From Justusliebigvirus alia: a stretch of 64,000 nt of DNA. How positions within the stretch are numbered: position 1 is the first letter of the stretch; each line of letters starts with the position of its first letter. The notes below the pieces were generated by a model. It did not search any database. It was not told the DNA's origin and saw only the letters and a list, made by a program, of their open reading frames with translations. The DNA is taken from the sequence record OZ035799.1, one strand, 5' to 3'. Of the stretch, positions 5,253-22,204 are shown one piece after another. The position numbers and the translations under genes were made by a program.

Positions 5253-5684
5253 TTAATCAGTGAAAATTACGCTTACATCTTCTTTAGAAAAGAGTTTATG
5301 ATCTTCACCTTTTGTCTCAAGAGTTTCATACAGGTTAAGAAGTTCTGAAACATCTTTCTCTACCAGTTTCTTCAATGTTGCAATTTTCTGTTTGCGACTC
5401 TTAATACGTTCAGCTACAACCTTACGTTGGTATCCAGCAGTACGATAACCTGAGAAAGTTACACCAGTGAGACTTGCAGTTACAGGATCGTAATGACGTT
5501 CAATCTGAAATTTATTAAAAGGTACAGCGTCATCACGAATAATCTTCCCGCCATTACTTACTTGACGAAGACCAGTAACTTGTTCTAGTCGTGCCATAGA
5601 AATCTTTGGAGACAGACCAGAGTCCAGGTTCATACCATTGTTAATCAGTGCTTTCAGGGTGATTTTGCTGTTCAGTGTACTCAT
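5253..5684 (-). CDS. hypothetical protein
   Basis: 143-aa ORF; ATG preceded by GGAGGA; overlaps 3-prime end of methyltransferase gene by 44 nt. Confidence 0.55.
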   Translation of the reverse strand: MSTLNSKITLKALINNGMNLDSGLSPKISMARLEQVTGLRQVSNGGKIIRDDAVPFNKFQIERHYDPVTASLTGVTFSGYRTAGYQRKVVAERIKSRKQKIATLKKLVEKDVSELLNLYETLETKGEDHKLFSKEDVSVIFTD

Positions 5685-6372
5685 TTAGTCGTTCCTCCGC
5701 TTGCTTAAAAATATTTACATCGGCTTCACAGCCTAAGTATTCTCTACCTGTTAAAAGTGCCGCAACTTGTGTTGTTGCACTTCCAGAGAAGAAGTCTAAG
5801 ACTACATCTCCTTCGTTGGTGTGTATATTAATAAGGTCACAAAACAAAGTCAAGTGTTTTTGTGTTGGATGAAAACGATCTGCTCCTTGATAGATAGGAT
5901 ACTCAAACACACCCTTATGGTAGGAAGCATTGAAGGTTGGCTTAGAACCTTTAACACAAACAATAGCCATTTCTTTAGCGTTACTAAGATAGTTAACACC
6001 ACTGTTGATGGGTACAGGGTTTGTTTTAATCCATTCGATAGTACGGAACATACGAAAACCAAGCGGTTCAAGGATTTCACGTAGCTCCTGGATCTTCCAG
6101 ATATCATACCAAACTATGCAAGTACCACCTTTTCTAAGCACCCTATAGGCTTCTTTGAATACTTCTTTAAAGTAAGGAATATCTACAACATCCCAATCAC
6201 CAAAGTTGTAAGATACACGGAATCTATCCGTATCTTTTCCAGTAGGCTCTCCAGACTGAAAATTTGTGTCACGAGAAATAGCATATGGTGGGTCAGTAAG
6301 AATCAAATCTACACTATTGCTTTCGAGGGTTTGCAGGTAGTTTAATGCAGTGTTGTTTACAAATTCGCTCAT
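5641..6372 (-). CDS. DNA methyltransferase, beta-class (N6-adenine or N4-cytosine)
   Basis: 243 aa; catalytic DPPY motif N-terminal, AdoMet motif FFSGSATT C-terminal (beta-class order). Confidence 0.8.
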   Translation of the reverse strand: MSEFVNNTALNYLQTLESNSVDLILTDPPYAISRDTNFQSGEPTGKDTDRFRVSYNFGDWDVVDIPYFKEVFKEAYRVLRKGGTCIVWYDIWKIQELREILEPLGFRMFRTIEWIKTNPVPINSGVNYLSNAKEMAIVCVKGSKPTFNASYHKGVFEYPIYQGADRFHPTQKHLTLFCDLINIHTNEGDVVLDFFSGSATTQVAALLTGREYLGCEADVNIFKQAEERLNEYTEQQNHPESTD

Positions 6373-7838: not shown

Positions 7839-8432
7839 TTAAATCTTAAATTCTTCACTGTTAAATGAATCCAGTGTACGTACTTCTGGTTCTTTGGGAA
7901 TGAAAACGTCTTTTACAAAGCGGAACATAGGGAAACGTTCTGCCATTTTACGGACGTGTGCTTCTTTACCTGTGTATCGGTGATTAATAGTACAAATATT
8001 AGTTTTCAGTGCAAATTCAAAATCTGGATGATATACATAATTTTGACCATCCCAGTAACACAGGCAAATAGCTACATCAAAGTTCCATACGATTTCACTG
8101 CGTACACCCTCTTCCATGATCATAAAGTTAAACTTAAGATCTTTATAGTATGCTTCAAATACCCATTTCAAATGTGGTAGTTCGGCATAAGTGTGTTCTG
8201 TTTGCTTAGTAAGTTGTTTAACATTACGTGCACCAACACCCAACATCAAAAATTTCTCTACTAGTACGAGTGTATTGTGGTTAGGCATACGCAAGTAAAT
8301 GTCAATATCTTGCGCAGGTTTCTCTAATCGCCAGTCACGTACAGCGCCGCCAGCTACAATTGCAAACGGATCTACCAGTTGGCACATACGTAATACTTCT
8401 AAAGCTCGTACTTTTTGATCTTCAATATTCAT
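7839..8432 (-). CDS. minimal nucleotidyltransferase (GGAVRD...DIDIY; CCA-adding/poly(A) polymerase head-domain-like)
   Basis: Track ORF 7839..8453 starts at GTG; in-frame ATG at 8432 has AGGAGAA RBS. Confidence 0.5.
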   Translation of the reverse strand: MNIEDQKVRALEVLRMCQLVDPFAIVAGGAVRDWRLEKPAQDIDIYLRMPNHNTLVLVEKFLMLGVGARNVKQLTKQTEHTYAELPHLKWVFEAYYKDLKFNFMIMEEGVRSEIVWNFDVAICLCYWDGQNYVYHPDFEFALKTNICTINHRYTGKEAHVRKMAERFPMFRFVKDVFIPKEPEVRTLDSFNSEEFKI

Positions 8433-8440
8433 ATTTTCTC

Positions 8441-9037
8441 CTATCGTTTCCACTCTTTGTGTTGTTCTACATGCTCAAGCATTTCATTATATAGTGCTTT
8501 AAGATGTGGAACAACTCTTTCATCTTCAATTTCAAAGAATTTTGTAAGCTGTTCTGCCTTAGCCTTCAACCAACAAAGATGCGCTTCAATTTCAGTATTA
8601 AAACGTCCCAGCGTTTTCATGCGACCGTCTACTTTTATGTTGGCTTTATACTTTTTACGATCTTTCTCGTAACTACAGCCTACCATAGTCCCATGAGATC
8701 TTTTACTTACCCTATAAGCTAAGAACTTATTAAGATCTCCTGTTACTAAAAGACAGGTATTGGGAGAGTAAACTCTCCCTCCTATAATATCTTTATCAAG
8801 TTCTAAGTTTTCCCAGTTATCCCAAGTTTGCAACCAGGAGTAGAAATTGGAGAACAGTTTCCATTCTTCACAAACCGTCACCCCCTTATAACAAGGATCA
8901 CGTTCTTGTTGACAAGGGGAGTAACACCTCCCCAACATAGCCATCCATTTCATATAATGCGGCGTTAGTTTCTTACTACCAGGTAGCGTACTCTCGCCTT
9001 CCAAATCATTAATACCTTCACCATATACGGTAAGCAT
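8441..9037 (-). CDS. putative free-standing homing endonuclease (phage HNH/AP2-type)
   Basis: 198 aa; W..M..RC...Y...VCEEW..F..F pattern and AP2-like LGRFNTEIEAHLCWLKA; lies just downstream of polymerase gene. Confidence 0.45.
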   Translation of the reverse strand: MLTVYGEGINDLEGESTLPGSKKLTPHYMKWMAMLGRCYSPCQQERDPCYKGVTVCEEWKLFSNFYSWLQTWDNWENLELDKDIIGGRVYSPNTCLLVTGDLNKFLAYRVSKRSHGTMVGCSYEKDRKKYKANIKVDGRMKTLGRFNTEIEAHLCWLKAKAEQLTKFFEIEDERVVPHLKALYNEMLEHVEQHKEWKR

Positions 9038-11711: not shown

Positions 11712-11732
11712 AAAGGGGCTTTCGCCCCTTCT
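11712..11732 (-). terminator. stem-loop (AGGGGC-TTTC-GCCCCT)
   Basis: Perfect inverted repeat in 93-nt gap upstream of polymerase gene. Confidence 0.4.
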
Positions 11733-12141: not shown

Positions 12142-13914
12142 TTAATAAGAACCAGCAGGAATATTCTCTGGGTTACTTGTGTATTGATCGTAATCGTGAA
12201 GTGTAGCTGTTTTAATCTCATAGAAGAAACTACCTGCTGCACCAGTCTCTGAGAACTCACGGTTCTTTAGAATGTAGCAATATGTGCGGTTACGTTCCAT
12301 AGGATCTTCAGCTTGTTTATCACGCTCCAGCGCAATTGTGATACCAGCACCTTTAGCAAGGAAGCTACTACCCATTGCATCATCTTCTACAATATGTTCA
12401 TTACTATTGTTAGAAGACTTTTTAACGTGTGAAATTACAACAATGGTTATTGCATACTCTTTCATAATGCGTTTCAGCCACGTCGCAAGTTCCTCTTGTT
12501 GTGACACGTCCATACCAGAAAGCAAATCAGAATAAGGGTCGATAACAAGAATGGTTACTCCGAAATAAATAATCATTTCCAGAACCTTCTCTTTAATCAC
12601 ATCTACGTTAGCTCCACGATCATCACAAACATAGAAACGTGGTGTTCCATCTTCCCGTTCGTAAAAATCACGAATCTTTTCTTCATTATCTTTTAAAATC
12701 TTTTCCTTCTCTTCTTTCGTTTTACGGTGAAGAGGGATATGCAAGAATGAAGACAGTAAGTTACGAGAATACTTCTTATACGTTGCCTCCAAAGATAAAA
12801 TACCAAGAGTATGTTCTGGGTGTGCAAGAATAATGTGTTTCGTAATCTCGTTAACCAACAGTGTCTTACCGATACTTGTTTTTGCAAGTATAACAGTAAT
12901 TTCTTCTTCTACCAAGCCTCCACCTAACATATTAGAAGCAACACGCATGAATGGAGGAAGGGTAATCATTTTAGCTTCCAGGCATTCCAAGGCTGCTTCA
13001 TACAGTACGTTAGAAGCGTAAACACCAGCAGGTGTGTATAGTTTAGCTTTGAAAAAGCGATCAATAAAATGATCAATTTTTCCTTCTACTAGTGCCTGGT
13101 TAGGATCTTTAACATCAGTTAGCTCCATCACGTAAACTTTATTACGTGGTAAGATTTTAACACATTTCTCAACTGCTGCACGTCCAGCTTCATCATTGTC
13201 CATACATAGAACAATCTTTTTAAATTGGTCTAAGAATTTATAACGATGTTGAAGCTGTTTATGCAGAGATGTTTCGCCACAAGTACCAGATACTACAGCA
13301 GGAACAGGATATTTACCACCCTTGTTATAATCTTTTAGCATCTGTGTTGCAGCCAGCATATCGTGTTCACCACCAACGATTAGAATAGTACCGCTGTGGT
13401 TACGATATTTAAACTCCCCAAAAAGATCACAATCCTTTCCTGTTTCACCGATAGGATGCGAGAAATCTTTTGGATCGATACGTTGTTTATACCCAGCAAT
13501 ATTGTAATCTTTAGTTGTAGGGTATAGTGTTGAAATTACTTCGCCAGTAGCTTCATCGTACATATAGCGTACACCGAAAGGTTTAGAGATATCTTCACGA
13601 ATACCGCGATAACCTTTTGGATTAGTTCCAGTGCTGGCTTTTAGTTTATCATGTACTTCTGGATTAAACTCACTACCCAAGATATCCTCCTCTTCAATTT
13701 CTTCGCCGTGTGCATTTAACCATTTTTGATCAGGGATAGTAAAGCCACAAGAAAAACAATGTGCGCCTCGATGGTCTTCATCGGCATCTAAGCCATATAC
13801 CATCAAATTGTTTTGTGATCGATCACGCCCTCCTTTCATACAACGAGGACACCCAGTATGTCCTTCTTGACTTAGATCAATGTTATACCCATATTTATTT
13901 ACAACATAAGACAC
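12142..13914 (-). CDS. bifunctional DNA primase-helicase (T7 gp4-like)
   Basis: 590 aa; N-terminal Cys4 zinc ribbon (CPRC...CFSCGF), C-terminal P-loop helicase; GTG start after GGAGAA. Confidence 0.85.
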   Translation of the reverse strand: MSYVVNKYGYNIDLSQEGHTGCPRCMKGGRDRSQNNLMVYGLDADEDHRGAHCFSCGFTIPDQKWLNAHGEEIEEEDILGSEFNPEVHDKLKASTGTNPKGYRGIREDISKPFGVRYMYDEATGEVISTLYPTTKDYNIAGYKQRIDPKDFSHPIGETGKDCDLFGEFKYRNHSGTILIVGGEHDMLAATQMLKDYNKGGKYPVPAVVSGTCGETSLHKQLQHRYKFLDQFKKIVLCMDNDEAGRAAVEKCVKILPRNKVYVMELTDVKDPNQALVEGKIDHFIDRFFKAKLYTPAGVYASNVLYEAALECLEAKMITLPPFMRVASNMLGGGLVEEEITVILAKTSIGKTLLVNEITKHIILAHPEHTLGILSLEATYKKYSRNLLSSFLHIPLHRKTKEEKEKILKDNEEKIRDFYEREDGTPRFYVCDDRGANVDVIKEKVLEMIIYFGVTILVIDPYSDLLSGMDVSQQEELATWLKRIMKEYAITIVVISHVKKSSNNSNEHIVEDDAMGSSFLAKGAGITIALERDKQAEDPMERNRTYCYILKNREFSETGAAGSFFYEIKTATLHDYDQYTSNPENIPAGSY

Positions 13915-13926
13915 ATGATTCTCCTA

Positions 13927-14196
13927 CTAAAATGATTCGTTTGTCTCCATAATATATTGCATTTCCAAATCTTCCATATGTTTCTTAAATTGGTAAACAA
14001 TTTCCGATGGGGAAATATCTATATCAAAAAGTTCTTTTGTACCAGAATAAAACCTAATACCATCAACAATAAGACCACCATAATAATCCCAATCACTTTC
14101 TCGTGAGAAAGGGTTAGGTTCTTCATAATAGTAATCTACTTCAACAATAATAGGTTCTTTATTATCTTGTTTATACTCAAAATCAAAAGTGTTCAT
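13927..14196 (-). CDS. hypothetical protein
   Basis: 89-aa ORF; start overlaps stop of upstream gene. Confidence 0.5.
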   Translation of the reverse strand: MNTFDFEYKQDNKEPIIVEVDYYYEEPNPFSRESDWDYYGGLIVDGIRFYSGTKELFDIDISPSEIVYQFKKHMEDLEMQYIMETNESF

Positions 14197-15140
14197 TATA
14201 AATCCTCGATAAGCAGTCTGCGGGTTTCATTTAAATCATCAATATTGTAGTTATCTCTTACATACTTAGCAAGAGCCAATCCTTTCTCAATACAAACATC
14301 AGGAGATTCGATTAAGTATTCTACAATATCTTTCCACTCTTTAACTGAATCAGCAAAGAAGATTAGATCTTTAAATTCTTCAGTATAATAGTTCTCTCGT
14401 GGCGAACAAACGAGTGGCAAACCTTTAGCACCAGCTTCAAGAATTTTTAAATTACTTTTGGCATTATTAAAATGATTATTTACTAACGGAGCTATGGAGA
14501 TTTGATGACCATCGTATGCTTCCATATAACACTCATAAGGACGAATACCTTCATAAACACAATCTGGTTGAATATCTTCTTTAATTTGCAACCATTGAGC
14601 ACTACTTAACTCTTCGTGATCTCTACGAAATCCACATAAAGTTAAATCTTTACCAAAACCAGGAAGAATAGCTAAATCATGTTTATGTGTTTCACTTCCC
14701 GCCCAAACCAGTGGACTTTTAGAATAACGGTCTTTTGTCAAAGTAAATTGACCTTCGTCGTAAGGTAGTGCGTTTCTAATAACGACAACATTACGATTTA
14801 AATGACGAATTTTGTAAGCTAGGTATTCTGTTGTTACAGTAACAACATCTGCTAACTTGACCATCTCTACGATAGTCTTTGAGTGATTAGCAAATACGCC
14901 AGCCATATAATGTTCAGGATTAAGTGAATAAAAGTCATCTAAATCAACAATAATCTTAACACCTTGTGCCTTGAGGCGTTTAACCTCGTCTGCTCCATGA
15001 GAATACACTCTATTAAAAACCAAAACGTCTTTCTTAGGTTTAAACGTATTTCCAGCAAATGGCATTACAATACGATGGTAATCACAACCACTGCCTAACT
15101 TATTATCACACTTAAGTACAGGAGTATTAGGATTTACCAT
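14196..15140 (-). CDS. glycosyltransferase (GT-B fold-like)
   Basis: Track ORF starts 15179; chosen ATG at 15140 follows GAGGAGG; KILEAGAKGLPLVCSP resembles GT1/GT4 signature. Confidence 0.5.
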   Translation of the reverse strand: MVNPNTPVLKCDNKLGSGCDYHRIVMPFAGNTFKPKKDVLVFNRVYSHGADEVKRLKAQGVKIIVDLDDFYSLNPEHYMAGVFANHSKTIVEMVKLADVVTVTTEYLAYKIRHLNRNVVVIRNALPYDEGQFTLTKDRYSKSPLVWAGSETHKHDLAILPGFGKDLTLCGFRRDHEELSSAQWLQIKEDIQPDCVYEGIRPYECYMEAYDGHQISIAPLVNNHFNNAKSNLKILEAGAKGLPLVCSPRENYYTEEFKDLIFFADSVKEWKDIVEYLIESPDVCIEKGLALAKYVRDNYNIDDLNETRRLLIEDL

Positions 15141-15813
15141 GTTTTTGAGCCTCCTCATAAGAGATAAAAGTTTTACCATTGCGAAGATCCTCCAGTGATT
15201 GTTTATATTGTTCCCAGTTTACACCAATCCCCTGTTCTTTCTCTTCTTTTGACAGATTCGCAAAAGGTAAAGGATTGTCTCCAAACACATCGTCAGGATG
15301 GATAAACGCCATAATTCGAATAGGACATGGTACGCCTTGAATACCTCGGTTCAAACCTGCCAGTGGAACGCGATGAATCCACTCTGCATCTTCATATCCA
15401 TAACCGTGGGTGTATGAGCGGAAATAGCCAGCTTTCTCAATAACTGCACGGGAATACATACCAAACTGGCACATTCCTAGCTCCCAAATAACCACTTCCC
15501 CTTCAATACCTTTTACTTTATCTTTAAAGTATTCAGGCATACCAAAGAAATCCCAACCATTTTCCTTCGCCTGTTTTACAAAATATGTTTCCCAACCTTG
15601 AACAACAGGATAGCAATCATCATCAAAAATAAACCAGTAATCATACCCTTCATCATAAAACTTTTTCATCAGTTCATTACGGGCATATGCAACACCTTTT
15701 CGTTCACGATCATACTGCACAACAAAAGTAGCATTAGGATCAGTCACAAGATAATCTTTAAGAGGACGCTTACCTACAGTAATAACACCAACACCGATTT
15801 TTGTATTTTCCAA
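15127..15813 (-). CDS. glycosyltransferase family 2-like
   Basis: 228 aa; TTG start 5 nt after AAGGAG; DxD-type FIFDDDCYP and YGYEDAEW motifs. Confidence 0.55.
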   Translation of the reverse strand: MENTKIGVGVITVGKRPLKDYLVTDPNATFVVQYDRERKGVAYARNELMKKFYDEGYDYWFIFDDDCYPVVQGWETYFVKQAKENGWDFFGMPEYFKDKVKGIEGEVVIWELGMCQFGMYSRAVIEKAGYFRSYTHGYGYEDAEWIHRVPLAGLNRGIQGVPCPIRIMAFIHPDDVFGDNPLPFANLSKEEKEQGIGVNWEQYKQSLEDLRNGKTFISYEEAQKHGKS

Positions 15814-15822
15814 AATAACTCC

Positions 15823-16386
15823 TTAAATAATTTTATTCATGTCTTGACAATGTAAAAGGTGTGAAACAGCTTTCCTAGGATCATCACTACCTAAACGGTA
15901 TGTGTGAAATAAATATAACCCACGTAATAAACCTAGCCTTTTGTTGTTAGCATGTAATGCTTTAGAGAAAATTATATCAAACTGTATTGACCTTTCCTCA
16001 AAAGGTATTTCATTCCACAGGCTCTTACGAAAGAGAAGAAAGAATCCTGCTAAGATAGCATCTGTAGGTACTTCCTCTATTGAGTTTCCCCATTCTAGAT
16101 GTGCTCTTTTTGCAATCTCAATGTGGTGTAATATATTTGGATCTTCACTTCTTTCATTATTAAATAATTGATATGTTGATCCCAATCTATTACAAGATGC
16201 ACCAAGAACATCAAAATCAGGATTTGAACGGACTATTGATTCCAACCAAGCAGGTTGTTCTGGAAGAAGAAACATTGTATCAATGTCTCTTAGGCAAATC
16301 CAACTATCTTCTGGTAAGACACTTATTGTGTCATTGATACCTTTTCCAATATCTCCAGAAAGATAGGGAGTTATGTGAAATATCAT
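15823..16386 (-). CDS. glycosyltransferase-like protein
   Basis: 187 aa; GGAGGGAG RBS; LRDIDTMF acidic motif. Confidence 0.45.
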   Translation of the reverse strand: MIFHITPYLSGDIGKGINDTISVLPEDSWICLRDIDTMFLLPEQPAWLESIVRSNPDFDVLGASCNRLGSTYQLFNNERSEDPNILHHIEIAKRAHLEWGNSIEEVPTDAILAGFFLLFRKSLWNEIPFEERSIQFDIIFSKALHANNKRLGLLRGLYLFHTYRLGSDDPRKAVSHLLHCQDMNKII

Positions 16387-17134: not shown

Positions 17135-17644
17135 TTAGCGATAGAATTGATGTTCTTTGTAGCGGTACACTAGAACCATATCTTTTTCCCAGTGTGCTCT
17201 TATTGTAGATTTTTTAAAGTATAATGCTCCTTTTGTAATATCTAATGCAATTCGTAATTCTGGAAAATGCGTATCGAGATAAAGTAGACGTTCTGCTATA
17301 GCCTTAGCTTCCTTCCACTTATCACGTTCCATAACGTTGAATGTCTTTGTGTAAGAGAATTGTCCTTTTTGAAACAAAACTTCTTTTATAGTATCAGGGA
17401 AATATGAATCTCTAGCCCTATTTAATACTACATTACCAACAGCAGACATACCGCGCTTTCCTTGATTACGACTTTCTGCATAGATTGCACAAGCTAATAG
17501 ATTTTCTTTACTATCACGCTTTGTACACTTGTGAACTACTTTAGCAGTTTTTACGTTTGCAGCTTCGGCTTGCGCCACAACAGGTGTAAATGTAAAAGCA
17601 GTTAAGGATAGTAACGCAATTGCGACAAAGGTTTTTATTGACAA
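17135..17644 (-). CDS. secreted cell-wall hydrolase (SleB/CwlJ-like) with signal peptide
   Basis: TTG start after AGGAGG; signal peptide ending AQA; AESRNQG...AVGNVVLNR motif. Confidence 0.6.
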   Translation of the reverse strand: MSIKTFVAIALLSLTAFTFTPVVAQAEAANVKTAKVVHKCTKRDSKENLLACAIYAESRNQGKRGMSAVGNVVLNRARDSYFPDTIKEVLFQKGQFSYTKTFNVMERDKWKEAKAIAERLLYLDTHFPELRIALDITKGALYFKKSTIRAHWEKDMVLVYRYKEHQFYR

Positions 17645-18338: not shown

Positions 18339-18390
18339 TGTTTTCTCCTCTTCTATTTAAAATATGCGCCCCGAAGGGCGCTATGATTTA

Positions 18391-18987
18391 TTACTCGAAC
18401 CAATCGTCGCCAGCGCCAAACGCTTTAACTACATCATAAATGTCAAGTCCAGCTTTACCTACACCATATGCTTTCAGTTTCCATTCGTTATCTTCCCGCA
18501 CCAGGGAGGCAACGTGGCAAATGGTATTACCTGCAAGTTCTGGAGCCAAGAAGTCAAAGTCCAGCAGTTCAACGTTACGTTCATCATCGAAGATTTTAAG
18601 GAAACCTTCGGTAGCGTGACCAAGGCGTTTCTTACCCGTTTCGTCATCAATAGTAATTACGAATGCAATTTCCTGTGCTTCAGCAGAGATATTATCCAGT
18701 GTAACATCAATCTGCTCCATTTGCCCTACACCGTCACGAACATCTTCACCTGCAAAAGTAGAACGTTCAGGATCAAATTTCTGTGCGTAGCATACCAAGT
18801 GGCGAGGAGACAACAGTTCCGGCAGACCAGATGCATTGTGTCGGCAAATCAGAGCACTAACATCCAGATCCAGTTTTTCGTTAGATTTCCAAGAGAATTC
18901 CAGACGAATGCGTTTCAGTGCTGGTGCAATCTTTTTCAGAGAAACTTTTTCGCTAGAACCTTTTTTCAGGGAAATTTTCTGAGTCAT
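18391..18987 (-). CDS. terD: TerD-domain protein
   Basis: 198 aa; ISLKKG start, DLDVSA, EIAFVITIDD, EWKLKAYG blocks typical of TerD family. Confidence 0.75.
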   Translation of the reverse strand: MTQKISLKKGSSEKVSLKKIAPALKRIRLEFSWKSNEKLDLDVSALICRHNASGLPELLSPRHLVCYAQKFDPERSTFAGEDVRDGVGQMEQIDVTLDNISAEAQEIAFVITIDDETGKKRLGHATEGFLKIFDDERNVELLDFDFLAPELAGNTICHVASLVREDNEWKLKAYGVGKAGLDIYDVVKAFGAGDDWFE

Positions 18988-19059
18988 AATTTATTATCTC
19001 CTTTGTTGTTAATTTACGTTGTCTATTTTACTAATCTTTTCTACAAAGTCAAGCGTTTT

Positions 19060-19854
19060 TTACGCTTTTGCTCCAAATTTTTTAACCCACTCGCCAAACT
19101 CTTCAGATAGCAGTTTATCGTAAAGTTCTTCGTCAGACAAGGACAAATCTGCAATACCGATAAAATCAACATTATCGTATTCTTTTGCCAAGTCTTTCAG
19201 GAATTTAAAGTTTGCATTACCTACACCAACCATAAACCAGTAAACAGGAGTGTTGCGGTGTTTGTTCAGCAAACTACGTACTGCTGAAGTATCCATGTTC
19301 TCCCCGTCAGTTTGGAAGAAAATCATTGCAGGAGTACGATCAACTTGTGCATCAGTATCTACAACCTGTTCTACAACAGTACGTGTAACTTCTACACGTT
19401 CTTTTTTACCAGTTAGTTTAGCAAGGAAACCCTTAGCCGGAACTTCTTCATATTCAACGACTTCGCGTGTAATATTTTTCGTAGGTACACTACCGAAGTA
19501 TGTACCATAGATCTCTTGCATTACTGGAGCATAAGCTGTACCACCATTGATGCAAACATTAGACATGCAAGAGCCGACATAATCATCATATACATCAGCC
19601 GTTGCAGGAGGCAGTTCAAAAGAAGAACTATTGAAAGCCCACATGTCAATCTGTGCATTATCATCAAACTTCATACCAAACGGCAGCAGCTTACCTACAA
19701 AATCACTAACAGTGCCATCACGATACAGCTCACACATACTCCCCGAAATATCTAAGGCGCTACCGACACGAAGAACAACATCGTTAATCTTTTTCTTACG
19801 CAGAGATACAGTAAGAGTTTCTTGACGTTTTTTAAGACTGATTTTATTGGACAT
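19060..19854 (-). CDS. von Willebrand factor A domain protein (TerY-like)
   Basis: 264 aa; MIDAS motif LDISGSM; AAGGAGA RBS. Confidence 0.55.
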   Translation of the reverse strand: MSNKISLKKRQETLTVSLRKKKINDVVLRVGSALDISGSMCELYRDGTVSDFVGKLLPFGMKFDDNAQIDMWAFNSSSFELPPATADVYDDYVGSCMSNVCINGGTAYAPVMQEIYGTYFGSVPTKNITREVVEYEEVPAKGFLAKLTGKKERVEVTRTVVEQVVDTDAQVDRTPAMIFFQTDGENMDTSAVRSLLNKHRNTPVYWFMVGVGNANFKFLKDLAKEYDNVDFIGIADLSLSDEELYDKLLSEEFGEWVKKFGAKA

Positions 19855-19855
19855 A

Positions 19856-20125
19856 TTATTTCTCCTTTCTGAGTGTAATGTTAGTAACTTCTAAATCCAC
19901 TTCTACCATTTCTGTATCATATGAAATACAGCTAAGTTGACCTCTTTGTGAACCGTTCAGACACATTGCTTGGTTTGTATTAACCTTAATAAACACTAAG
20001 TTTCTGAACGTATCTAAACCAGAATCTTGATAGGCAACATAATATACAAATGTATCACCTACGTCAAGTTCTCCAAAACATTTAGGTTCATCTGATTTGT
20101 CGTCTTTGATATTAAATTTAAGCAC
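19856..20125 (-). CDS. hypothetical protein
   Basis: 89-aa ORF; GTG start after AAGGAGGAG. Confidence 0.45.
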   Translation of the reverse strand: MLKFNIKDDKSDEPKCFGELDVGDTFVYYVAYQDSGLDTFRNLVFIKVNTNQAMCLNGSQRGQLSCISYDTEMVEVDLEVTNITLRKEK

Positions 20126-20681
20126 TATCTCCTCCTTTACCTACTTTCCAACCTAAATAGAAAGCCTCTCTAGTGATTTTTTGCAACTCGTTTAAAGAGA
20201 TAGTTACAACTAAATCATCTTCAATTTCTAGCTTTGAGTCTTCTTCTGTCTCAATGCAAGTATTATGCACTTTGTGGTAAGGATTGTCAACACGTTTAAA
20301 TTTATTATTTTCAGTGCTGAAGAAGCAATCTGGATCTTCTTCCCCATCACCCCAACCCTGGTTAGGATCTTCTTCAGATCTTTCTGTTGGGATCTCGCCT
20401 GTAAAGTGCTCTTCTAATACCAGAGCAATCCCATCTCCAAGATCGGAAGAGAACATCAAATTACAAACTTCTTCCCAAGGCATAGACCACTTAAATCTTT
20501 TACGATTGCCATGTTTATCTTCTTCGTTAGAGAAAACACTACCATAACTATCATAATTCCCATACATCTCTTCGACAACCTTACCACCTTTCAAAAGAAA
20601 TAGGTAGCAAGGAGAGCCATCGAAAGAGGTAGAAAGAGCAGCATTACCAGACTCTTTGCACAAGAAACTAAAACACCCCAT
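20118..20681 (-). CDS. hypothetical protein
   Basis: 187-aa ORF; start overlaps upstream stop. Confidence 0.5.
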   Translation of the reverse strand: MGCFSFLCKESGNAALSTSFDGSPCYLFLLKGGKVVEEMYGNYDSYGSVFSNEEDKHGNRKRFKWSMPWEEVCNLMFSSDLGDGIALVLEEHFTGEIPTERSEEDPNQGWGDGEEDPDCFFSTENNKFKRVDNPYHKVHNTCIETEEDSKLEIEDDLVVTISLNELQKITREAFYLGWKVGKGGDSA

Positions 20682-20881
20682 TATACACCAGCCTTAAGAT
20701 CAATTAAGGCCAAAGTTGTTTCAGAGTGTGTTTGCTCGTCTACAGGTGCAGTCATATGATAATACAAAAAATCTTCGGCATCATACCAATCTGATTCTTG
20801 ACCTTGTTTCCAACCATCAATGAAAGCATCTTCCATAATGGTTTGCAATTCTTCACGAGTTAAGTGAATATCTTTACTCAT
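20681..20881 (-). CDS. hypothetical protein
   Basis: 66-aa ORF; AGAGGAGAA RBS. Confidence 0.45.
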   Translation of the reverse strand: MSKDIHLTREELQTIMEDAFIDGWKQGQESDWYDAEDFLYYHMTAPVDEQTHSETTLALIDLKAGV

Positions 20882-21087
20882 TACACATTCTCCTCTTTTA
20901 CCAATTCCATCGTTGAATTGTCAAAACCATCTTTAGAAGAATAGGTATAGACAGAACGTAGTTCTCGCAGGACAGTGAATACATTAGGATCATCTAACCA
21001 AGTATCCTGGAGGAGAACATAACGATCTTCATTGTCATACTGAACAGCAATCATAGAACCAGACAGTTTGTAAATTTTAATATTCAT
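20881..21087 (-). CDS. hypothetical protein
   Basis: Track ORF starts at GTG 21114; in-frame ATG at 21087 has AAGGAGA RBS. Confidence 0.45.
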   Translation of the reverse strand: MNIKIYKLSGSMIAVQYDNEDRYVLLQDTWLDDPNVFTVLRELRSVYTYSSKDGFDNSTMELVKEENV

Positions 21088-21100
21088 AATATATTTCTCC

Positions 21101-22204
21101 TTAAAGTAGACCACGTTTAACAGTTTGAATCATACCATCTTCAAGAGATTGCACTTCTTGAATGTAATCAATACGAGCAGCACGGGCTTCAGTGTTGATT
21201 CGGTTAGTTTCTTCCAACATTTTAACTAAGTTTTCTTGATCACGACGCAATGTTTCAATATCCAATACTTGACGATTAGCAAGTTGTGTAGCTTCAATTT
21301 GGTTTTGTGCAGCCAGATCACTACCCATTGCAATAGCAGCATTAAATTCATTCAGTACATTGTTCTGCGTATCGGCTGCTTTCTTCTGGCGTAGACTTTC
21401 AATATACATAGAAAAGTTTGCAGAGTAAGCAGGAATAACATTATTCACAATATTACGGGCTGATCGCATCAAACTTGCAGATACTTTCTGCATACTTTGT
21501 ACACGTGGCCCCATCTGAACACACAGTAAGCGTAAGGCTTTCAGGTCTGCAATACGAATTTCAAGCAGATCCATAGTATCACGAGTACGTTGACGCTCTT
21601 CTACCTCATTTTCAGGTAGTGTATTAAGGCGAATTTCTTCTTTTTCATAAGTAGCTGTTAGAAGCTCTATATCCCTGTTTAAGCTAAGAGCATATTTTGC
21701 AATAGCTTCTTCTAAACGTTGCAGATATCGTAAAGAATCTTCTTCTTTTTTCAAGTCTGTTTGGAGTGTCTTTACCAAACCTTCAATACGGTTATTGATG
21801 GTGTCAAATTCTCCAAACAAATCTTCTTTCATACCTAAAACTTTCTTAACTAGTTTACCTAAACCTTTAGATTGTTTAATAGAGTTAGGATCAAGTTGCT
21901 TTGCTTGCTTAATAAGTGCAGTTAAACGTTCACTCATTTCATCTCCCTGAGATGAACGCTGGTGTTTAAGCACTTCAGCATTAAGGTTACGAAGAGTAAG
22001 TCCTGCATCAGCACCAACCTGTTCAATCTCTTCACGAGACATTGGAGGCAGCATTTGTACAGGTCGTGCAACAGCAGGGGCATATACAGGGCTTGCATCC
22101 ATAGCACTTGGAGCAAACAAAGACTTACTTTTTTCTGTTGTTGCCGTGAATACACTCATTTCAGACGGTTTGCTTTTTACGGCACTGATAAAAGGACTGG
22201 ACAT
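21101..22204 (-). CDS. TelA/KlaB-like (toxic anion resistance family) protein
   Basis: 367 aa, helical/coiled-coil; GGAGGAAA RBS; family call from overall pattern only. Confidence 0.45.
   Translation of the reverse strand: MSSPFISAVKSKPSEMSVFTATTEKSKSLFAPSAMDASPVYAPAVARPVQMLPPMSREEIEQVGADAGLTLRNLNAEVLKHQRSSQGDEMSERLTALIKQAKQLDPNSIKQSKGLGKLVKKVLGMKEDLFGEFDTINNRIEGLVKTLQTDLKKEEDSLRYLQRLEEAIAKYALSLNRDIELLTATYEKEEIRLNTLPENEVEERQRTRDTMDLLEIRIADLKALRLLCVQMGPRVQSMQKVSASLMRSARNIVNNVIPAYSANFSMYIESLRQKKAADTQNNVLNEFNAAIAMGSDLAAQNQIEATQLANRQVLDIETLRRDQENLVKMLEETNRINTEARAARIDYIQEVQSLEDGMIQTVKRGLL

Follow-up and report, generated by a model that had tools for sequence, protein, structure and literature searches.

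Evidence for a natural fusion of two GT-B paralogues in an apparently mobile glycosyltransferase cassette of Justusliebigvirus alia, with a possible role in virion glycosylation

The window analysed here is a 64,000-nucleotide (nt) stretch of DNA from the phage Justusliebigvirus alia (sequence record OZ035799.1), and the subject of this work is a block of three glycosyltransferase (GT) genes at positions 14196-16386. A sequence-only reading of the window had picked out three consecutive GT genes there, and we found three tightly packed, consecutive minus-strand open reading frames (ORFs) at these coordinates, the orthologues of which are gp166, gp165 and gp164/gp163 of phage phi92. Our results confirmed that the three genes encode soluble GTs, one of the GT-B type and two with small GT-A folds, and these identities are firmly supported. 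The marker and alignment data likewise argue firmly that the GT-B gene arose naturally when two adjacent paralogues were fused in frame, a gp164-type N-terminal half being joined to a gp163-type C-terminal half. The trio is a mobile phage cassette, for which the present position in the replication module looks like an accident of landing, and we put the probability that its function is the glycosylation of virion proteins at roughly 0.5.

OZ035770.1 ("Justusliebigvirus alia") matches the window at 100% identity, and some 55 genomes of phi92-like coliphages do so at 95-98%. The fusion GT-B gene lies at 14196..15179 on the minus strand and encodes 327 amino acids (aa) when counted from the first ATG. 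Its probable start is, however, M14 at 15140 (314 aa) rather than that first ATG; this codon is preceded by a GAGGAGG ribosome-binding site, and the gene calls for GT-B in phi92 and in contig L012 begin MVNPNT. When the gene was used as a query, it aligned in two pieces in 54 of 55 phage records, because those phages carry two GT-B genes, extending over 1970 bp, against a single gene of 984 bp here. Of 55 sequenced relatives, 54 accordingly have four GT genes, and this genome has three. In the protein alignment, GT-B follows the gp164 type to ...DEGQFTLTKDRYS and the gp163 type from KSPLVWAG... onward. Nucleotide markers from three reference phages place the last gp164-type site at nt 444 of the gene and the first gp163-type site at nt 454, and nearly all informative sites fit the gp164 type before the former position and the gp163 type after the latter. 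By marker map and protein alignment, the 5' part of the gene (14736..15179, minus strand) is of the gp164 type, which is the upstream paralogue, and the 3' part (14196..14726, minus strand), encoding the C-terminal half with the Pfam PF13524 match, is of the gp163 type, the downstream one.

The junction itself (14727..14735, minus strand) is a 9-nt microhomology, AAAGACCGT, which forms part of the LTKDR codons, is common to both paralogues in register, and falls at the predicted boundary between the two domains. In alia and phi92, no other stretch of in-register identity between the paralogues is as long, and the paralogues of phage Bas62 share an overlapping 9-nt run. Since the switch falls on this stretch, and the DNA of the two genes is otherwise only about 51% identical, the fusion is explained by a microhomology-mediated deletion of 986 bp. 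We considered whether the position of the junction could be a sign of selection for a working chimera and rejected this idea, since the junction sits exactly on the longest microhomology and the mechanism alone accounts for its position. In-register recombination also keeps the frame automatically, so that an intact fusion ORF does not by itself prove a working enzyme. In GT-B enzymes, the N-terminal Rossmann domain binds the acceptor and the C-terminal domain binds the nucleotide-sugar donor. By this general architecture, the fusion product would combine a gp164-type acceptor-binding domain with a gp163-type donor-binding domain.

The fusion is not confined to this genome. In a protein cluster built at 90% identity, there are six fusion alleles of full length, which are carried by at least 17 contigs of the Logan, ENA and NCBI collections. 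Contig L012 has the identical three-gene layout at 98.7% DNA identity over 8 kb, and its fusion gene shows 16 nucleotide differences from that of the window but only 5 amino-acid differences. In another allele (P0189), found on ENA contigs of up to 145,728 bp, the switch occurs 17 residues later (...WAGGASHEPDL|AILPDFGKD), on the 7-nt run TGATTTA, which is one of several tied next-longest microhomologies. Because this junction differs, the fusion must have arisen at least twice. Other IMG/VR contigs in which GT187, the first enzyme of the trio, is 78-79% identical vary in a different manner: three (L021, L022 and L024) carry GT187 and two GT-B genes without GT-A228, the second enzyme, and one (L023) carries GT187 and a single GT-B only. 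The latter was examined as a candidate third fusion and rejected, as its gene is gp164-type throughout. Thus, the gene content of the GT site is plastic even among close relatives. It is conceivable, though rather improbable in our judgement, that the tandem GT-B paralogues constitute a recombination-driven switch, in which repeated microhomology-mediated fusion at the domain boundary would yield active domain-swapped enzymes and phage populations with alternative glycan coats of the virion. If so, the locus would provide natural glyco-diversification of virions, with varying antigenicity or stickiness for example, and a ready-made case of modular GT-B engineering.

The sequence-only reading had described one GT-B and two GT2-like enzymes near a primase-helicase gene, with the motifs FIFDDDCYP and LRDIDTMF, and this description agrees with the PF13524, PHROG and fold matches obtained here; both motifs are present and supply invariant core residues in their families. 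The check it proposed, classification into GT families by hidden Markov models, succeeded in part: GT-B scores above a Pfam cutoff and all three match glycosyltransferase PHROGs (1e-79 to 1e-144), whereas the two GT-A enzymes lack a curated match. For GT-B, the Pfam family is PF13524 (Glyco_trans_1_2, a member of the GT-B clan; 27.5 bits, the cutoff being 25; residues 206-296) and the PHROG is phrog_7162 (4.7e-144). The protein falls below the cutoff of PF13692, and its homologues carry PF13524, PF13692 and PF13439. In the protein alignments, the stretch K-I-L-E248-A-G-A-K-G-L-P, which holds a candidate for the conserved Glu of the donor-binding, EX7E-like C-terminal region, is invariant across both paralogues and every fusion allele. 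None of the three GT proteins has an NCBIfam match, and a sequence search against PDB chains returned nothing meaningful for any of them. Nor does any contain a transmembrane-like segment by Kyte-Doolittle hydrophobicity, the maximum 19-residue mean being about 1.1.

GT187 (15823..16386, minus strand; 187 aa) is the phi92 gp166 orthologue, a soluble, minimal GT-A-fold glycosyltransferase. LRDIDTMF corresponds to its residues 32-39, and D34, D36 and T37 are invariant in 29 homologues, as are N66, R67, H88, D137, H161, Y163, R164 and H176. The protein matches phrog_14179 (1.5e-112) and also phrog_26101, and has no Pfam match. Its AlphaFold model (predicted local distance difference test, pLDDT, 94.7) was compared with the PDB by Foldseek, and the matches listed are GT-A enzymes, among them LARGE1, RmlT, LH3, COLGALT1 and ppGalNAc-T2 (E values of 1.7e-4 to 5e-3; template-modelling (TM) scores of about 0.45-0.52), of which RmlT uses deoxythymidine diphosphate (dTDP)-rhamnose. 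GT-A228 (15127..15813, minus strand; 228 aa, TTG start) is the soluble GT-A-fold orthologue of phi92 gp165, and its stop overlaps the start of the fusion GT-B gene. Here FIFDDDCYP is at residues 61-69, and F61, F63, D64, D65, D66 and P69 are invariant in 19 homologues together with R16 and Y138-G139-x-E141-D142. GT-A228 matches phrog_2456 (1.8e-79). In Pfam, its match to TAGT (PF20691) is sub-threshold (24.1 bits against a cutoff of 27.5, profile positions 37-100 of 205), and since no curated GT model, PF00535 included, is above threshold, we class it as GT-A by fold and not as a filed GT2 member. The best PDB matches of its AlphaFold model (pLDDT 87.6; predicted TM score 0.86) are STIV A197, majastridin, LH3 and TarP (TM 0.39-0.46). 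Over PDB and BFVD, most of its top fold matches are GT-A enzymes, a few others being nucleotidyltransferases with a related fold, and the BFVD fold search returned mostly unnamed or generic GT matches. As a side observation, a 44-kb contig (L088) of a metagenome-assembled genome labelled Nitrosotalea sp., an archaeal bin, encodes a GT187 homologue with 42% identity; possible explanations are the mis-binning of a viral contig and an extension of the GT187 family to archaeal viruses.

The distribution of the cassette was surveyed with profiles of the three families, and 65 loci were found in IMG/VR via GT187. In 46 of them GT187 stands beside GT-A and/or GT-B homologues, with all three adjacent in 26, GT187 and GT-A in 14, and GT187 and GT-B in 6; the cassettes show two kinds of gene order. 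A distant 135-kb myovirus contig (L008) has a phi92-like position by the primase/helicase gene, with one GT-B and an NAD-dependent sugar epimerase/dehydratase embedded in the cassette. Linkage to structural or late genes was seen in nine loci (L009, L010, L013-L016, L040, L046 and L053) of unrelated prophages and small siphovirus-type phages. In L013, a prophage of Pseudomonas alliivorans, the trio immediately follows the gene for the major capsid protein, and it lies immediately before the terminase in L015, L040 and an Enterobacter huaxiensis prophage (L014), where an epimerase/dehydratase accompanies it. Two HK97-like contigs (L046 and L053) have the order TerL, portal, protease, capsid and then GT-A, GT-B and GT187, and their ORF-size pattern recurs in three further contigs. 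In a lambdoid contig (L016), the trio has the Q antiterminator gene on one side and the lysis genes on the other. A GT187 homologue is also located between terminase and portal in L009, where genes for a GT2 and a polysaccharide deacetylase and two Methyltransf_24 (PF13578) genes accompany it. In Cellulophaga phage phi18:2, a GT187 homologue has the portal/minor capsid genes and the protease/capsid genes as its neighbours. Pfam matched none of the large neighbouring genes of L056, L068 and L075.

The position of the trio in phi92-like phages was also compared with that in more distant phages. The flanking genes gp162 and gp167 have homologues in PVP-SE1 (gp008 and gp006, respectively). Protein searches with the GTs matched Justusliebigvirus and Phapecoctavirus, and no Vequintavirus-type or PVP-SE1-type phage was among the matches listed. 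Since PVP-SE1 has the flanking genes and the GT searches list none there, the placement in the replication module looks like an insertion site and not like a link in function. The earlier statement that the genes lie inside that module is therefore correct insofar as they adjoin the primase/helicase gene, but the position looks like the accidental landing site of a mobile cassette.

A source of activated sugar is present in the same genome. A dTDP-rhamnose operon (rmlBADC) is located at 117191-120452 of OZ035770.1, outside the window and about 70 kb from the cassette, and RmlA, B, C and D of Bas62 each score above the NCBIfam equivalog cutoff. The operon is intact here and partly deleted in the phages "cardinal" (28% aligns; PQ567651.1) and "Eryne" (83%; PQ529420.1). 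These deletions could serve as natural knockouts of the donor pathway. The epimerase/dehydratase genes embedded in the L008 and L014 cassettes, noted above, are likewise of the nucleotide-sugar type.

From these data, we propose the following mechanism. GT187, GT-A228 and GT-B are soluble cytoplasmic enzymes of one mobile glycosylation cassette, the second GT-B of this lineage having probably been gained by duplication, and they would work with the phage-encoded dTDP-L-rhamnose pathway. Acting in turn, they would assemble a short O-glycan with rhamnose among its sugars on structural proteins of the capsid and/or the tail during particle formation, and the product would resemble the glycan coats that are reported for mycobacteriophage Che8 and for the capsids of chloroviruses. 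In this genome, the deletion at the 9-nt microhomology fused the GT-B paralogues in frame, and as the fusion combines domains of two GT-Bs, the glycan should miss one step or carry a different sugar. We thus infer that the acceptors are virion proteins, that the donor is dTDP-rhamnose, and that the fusion enzyme is active and alters the glycan. Among the acceptors considered, virion proteins fit best with the capsid-gene neighbours, the sugar methyltransferase and deacetylase genes, the deoxysugar pathway and the distant homology to Bobi gp102. For the last of these, the GT-A228 profile matched the glycosyltransferase domain of Bobi gp102 with an E value of 8e-24, and the gp102 gene lies close to the right-hand end of a Cheoctovirus genome, the region that holds gp108-110 in Che8.

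The mycobacteriophage systems offer a functional precedent. Virion glycosylation by Che8 gp108-110 was reportedly described by Freeman et al. in Cell Host Microbe in 2023. As in our cassette, several phage-encoded soluble GTs dispensable for growth are involved, one of the present enzymes is homologous to the Bobi gp102 domain, and sugar O-methyltransferase-like genes (PF13578) stand beside GT187 relatives in L009 and phi18:2. The cassette differs from the Che8 type in that it has no match to gp108-110, belongs to phages of a Gram-negative host and is accompanied by its own dTDP-rhamnose operon, and its glycan is putative. In Che8 and Rita, both of the genus Cheoctovirus, glycans are reported to be covalently attached to the major capsid proteins (PMC11256854).

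Several results weigh against virion proteins as the acceptors. Profiles of the three GT families found no match in Che8 gp108, gp109 or gp110, and because the expected homology was absent, a direct link to Che8 was dropped. In the literature searched, no glycosylated virion protein is reported for phi92-like phages; a paper on virion glycosylation of JEP7 was set aside for want of a stated genus of JEP7. In this window and in other large myoviruses, the cassette stands by the primase/helicase gene and not by structural genes; there is no terminator-like site before the primase/helicase gene, and the replication-side placement does not suggest late expression. DNA-glycosylating GT clusters also occur near structural genes (Pyle et al., bioRxiv 10.1101/2023.12.21.572611), which makes guilt by association weak, and late-operon positions also house morons. 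The nearest Pfam family of GT-A228, TAGT, is a family of DNA glycosyltransferases, albeit at a sub-threshold score. Furthermore, the capsid families adjacent to the cassettes differ (PF20036, PF05065 and PF03864), which leaves no conserved protein acceptor, and the rml deletions in "cardinal" and "Eryne" together with the fusion alleles show that the system is dispensable for propagation.

The sequence-only reading had listed sugar modification of phage DNA, glycosylation of virion proteins and remodelling of host surface polysaccharide as possible roles; of these, the second gained support from the capsid and terminase neighbours seen elsewhere, and the first became the least likely. DNA hypermodification would mean that sugars, rhamnose or other, are placed on a hydroxylated phage DNA base and block host nucleases, and rhamnosylation of hydroxymethylated nucleotides was indeed proposed by Olsen et al. 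(PMC7552041). Phage enzymes of the GT-A (TAGT/JGT-like) and GT-B types put mono- to trisaccharides on 5-hydroxymethylcytosine (5hmC; Pyle et al., bioRxiv 10.1101/2023.12.21.572611), and phage DNA GTs (T4 alpha/beta-GT, T2/T6 TAGT-family and MT/5mYOX-associated enzymes) resemble the present set in pairing GT-A with GT-B near replication genes and in forming multi-GT clusters. GT-A228 weakly matches Pfam TAGT (3.9e-5) and, among PHROGs, that of the T-even beta-glucosyl-HMC alpha-glucosyltransferase (4.1e-5); an R...DDD...ED-type pattern and the PDB match to TarP are features that it shares with the GT-A enzymes acting on DNA that Pyle et al. described. The GT genes adjoin the primase/helicase and polymerase genes, and DNA is the sole acceptor common to all cassette-carrying phages. 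However, the TAGT match does not reach the gathering score and is limited to 64 residues at the N terminus, and no partner making 5hmC or 5-hydroxymethyluracil was found. Close relatives that combine rml with all four GTs are described in PMC8594841 as "exceptionally susceptible" to restriction-modification systems, and this "despite a putative dTDP glycosylation machinery." The relative phiPATM is reduced by seven logs by the bacteriophage exclusion (BREX) system, the phage being grouped as BREX-sensitive and not as BrxU-sensitive (PMC8565348). The methyltransferase of the window is of the N6/N4 type (PF01555) and not C5, the Bas62 "thymidylate synthase" has a weak match to ThyX only and is no ThyA-family hydroxymethylase, and base-modification genes are absent for about 9 kb around the prophage cassettes of L013 and L014. 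No C5-methyltransferase, TET/5mYOX or ThyA-type hydroxymethylase was found or annotated in the relatives, among which many hypothetical proteins were left unchecked. The literature searched holds no nucleoside analysis of any Justusliebigvirus, and the Durham DNA-modification paper leaves phiPATM unmentioned. We therefore consider modification of DNA very improbable.

The role that involves the host surface is also unlikely, to a lesser degree. Here, the soluble GTs would act on the core of lipopolysaccharide (LPS), on enterobacterial common antigen or on another lipid-linked glycan at the inner membrane face, and the altered receptors would exclude superinfecting phages or stop progeny from adsorbing to debris. 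GT-B falls in a broad GT4-like/CgeB-like group, which includes LPS-core enzymes, depositors labelled its homologue as RfaG-like (OX090893.1) or "diacylglycerol glucosyltransferase," and the post-Q and post-capsid positions in prophages are typical moron sites. These phages also recognise several surface glycans (PMC8594841; PMC11990801). On the other hand, no GtrA/B/C-like membrane component, flippase or ligase lies beside the cassette in the loci examined (including L008, L013 and L014), and in many small phages the cassette lies among the head genes and has their orientation. It thus differs from the Gtr-type seroconversion module, having no membrane-embedded GtrA flippase, GtrB or serotype-specific GtrC and encoding three proteins without a hydrophobic segment. 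Known seroconversion modules are found near integrase or tail-spike genes, which also counts against the idea, while Waa-type core GTs, like ours, are without transmembrane segments, which counts for it. A virulent phage, moreover, would have little time to bring new LPS to the surface. Quite improbable, in turn, is an acceptor that is a small molecule or a host protein, with a soluble glycoside or disaccharide or a glycosylated host factor as the product, possibly tied to a nearby Ter-like gene cluster. GT-B was labelled "putative disaccharide synthase" by the BASEL annotators and as having a trehalose-synthase-like fold by the phi92 annotators, and the GT genes are 2 kb from genes for TerD, vWA-TerF, TelA, TerC, a phosphoribosyltransferase and a HAD protein, a cluster for which a nucleoside-like metabolite is predicted. 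The cassette, however, occurs without Ter genes in prophages and small phages, there is no evidence for any host target, and three to four distinct GTs with a deoxysugar pathway would fit an oligosaccharide better than a disaccharide. Finally, the three-gene state might be an artefact of assembly or of laboratory work, or else the fusion gene could be a dead, functionless remnant; to both we give very little credence. The state is found in only 1 of 55 deposited genomes, and the frame that in-register recombination preserves is no proof of selection. Yet with only 51% identity and in-register identical runs of no more than 9 bases, the paralogues offer too little to mislead an assembler, and the identical layout recurs with diverged sequence in independent Logan, ENA and NCBI assemblies. 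The second, different junction in P0189 and the scarcity of amino-acid changes between the window and L012 alleles (5, at 16 differing nucleotide sites) point in the same direction.

Glycosylation of virion proteins, our preferred reading, can be set beside further known systems. The nearest is the gp163-gp166 cluster of phi92 itself, reportedly annotated by Schwarzer et al. in 2012. Across Justusliebigvirus and Phapecoctavirus, the orthologues are 95-100% identical, stand at the same place between gp162 and gp167 homologues and share the same genome-wide partner, the rmlBADC operon, with roles that are putative throughout. That cluster has four genes, and here there are three, the gp164 and gp163 equivalents being fused at the 9-nt microhomology. 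The cluster was discussed by Olsen et al. 2020 (PMC7552041) and Maffei et al. 2021, and our literature search found no study devoted to these GT genes. Giant viruses offer a second parallel. Their capsid glycosylation involves enzymes such as A064R of PBCV-1 together with virus-encoded nucleotide-sugar pathways. As in the phi92-like phages, the virus encodes rhamnose synthesis and several cytoplasmic GT-A enzymes that are independent of host lipid-linked pathways; in contrast, the host here is bacterial, there is no detectable sequence relation, and A064R is absent from the top 50 PDB fold matches of both GT-A models. With respect to the fusion, engineered chimeric glycopeptide and macrolide GTs are domain-swapped GT-B enzymes. 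Like the fusion, they join the acceptor N-domain of one enzyme to the donor C-domain of a paralogue at the inter-domain linker, but the present case is natural, came from a microhomology-mediated deletion and arose at least twice, and its activity is putative.

The genes around the trio were examined as well. Downstream, a conserved 89-aa ORF (13927..14196, minus strand), the phi92 gp162 orthologue (phrog_4240, 8.4e-35), begins with an ATG that overlaps the GT-B stop (ATAATG), and it lies between the GT genes and the primase/helicase gene (12142-13914). This type of ORF was found in the myovirus contig L008 and was undetected among the cassette-flanking genes of prophages L013 and L014; it accompanies the primase/helicase gene and not the GT cassette. 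Upstream are small ORFs and a SleB-like hydrolase. GC-rich hairpins with T-rich tracts at 18366-18381 and 11713-11730 flank one minus-strand block that runs from a 200-aa ORF through the GT genes to the primase/helicase gene, and these two flanking structures suggest that the block is one transcription unit. A promoter scan of the region was at chance level (25 found against 24.1 expected). The DNA methyltransferase gene (5641..6372, minus strand; PF01555 N6_N4_Mtase, 1.9e-30), which carries a Dam-like label in the Bas62 annotation, had been assigned to the same block as the GT genes. This link is unsupported, since the enzyme is of the N6/N4 type and is 7.8 kb away, with polymerase, primase/helicase and other genes between, and we judged it to be outside the glycosyltransferase system.

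Other features were observed in passing. A Ter-like stress cluster occupies 18391-22204 and continues to about 28000 on the minus strand in this virulent phage, 2 kb from the GT genes; Pfam confirms TerD (18391-18987) and a vWA-TerF-like protein (19060-19854), and in the annotation of relatives the next genes encode a TelA-like "tellurite resistance" protein, a TerC membrane protein, a phosphoribosyltransferase, a HAD hydrolase and a macrodomain protein. The SleB-type cell-wall hydrolase (17135-17644, minus strand; PF07486, 6.5e-20) has a hydrophobic, signal-like N terminus and replication-side neighbours, and a second endolysin is annotated elsewhere in the genomes of relatives (bas62_0202). 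Just downstream of the DNA polymerase gene are an ORF labelled as an HNH endonuclease in the RefSeq annotation of alia and a weakly PolyA_pol-like nucleotidyltransferase ORF (8441-9037 and 7839-8453, both minus strand), neither of which is above the Pfam threshold in the window. The UvrD-like helicase gene of Bas62 (L006, 5273-8047) contains an intein and the phi92 gene is equal in length, that of alia (L003, 34960-36696) being much shorter. The phi92 anaerobic ribonucleotide reductase gene (L005, 10798-12876) is annotated as split or spliced. Four records of "Campylobacter jejuni phage" (MG065639, MG065645, MG065656 and MG065689, named "Campylobacter phage A150, A145, C3, A110a") are 95-98% identical to Escherichia coli Justusliebigvirus over this region and the rml operon; the "Campylobacter" host labels are probably wrong, or the preparations contaminated.

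These genes were already annotated as glycosyltransferases in phi92-like phages. New here are the recurrent natural GT-B fusion, the three-GT mobile cassette beside head genes and the predicted glycan coat of a coliphage. Virion glycosylation by enzymes of the phage or virus has been shown for a few mycobacteriophages and for giant viruses; for phages with Gram-negative hosts, coliphages included, our literature search brought up no such report. The analysis removes a tempting mis-annotation of the locus as a DNA-modification, anti-restriction system, and the fusion supplies a natural case of a domain-swapped GT-B enzyme, the activity of which is putative. Together with the rml deletions, the natural four-gene and three-gene alleles form a ready set of isogenic-like variants. 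Phi92-like phages have very broad host ranges, and if the proposed function is true, a rhamnose-containing coat would affect antibody recognition of therapeutic phi92-like phages and their behaviour in mucus and blood.

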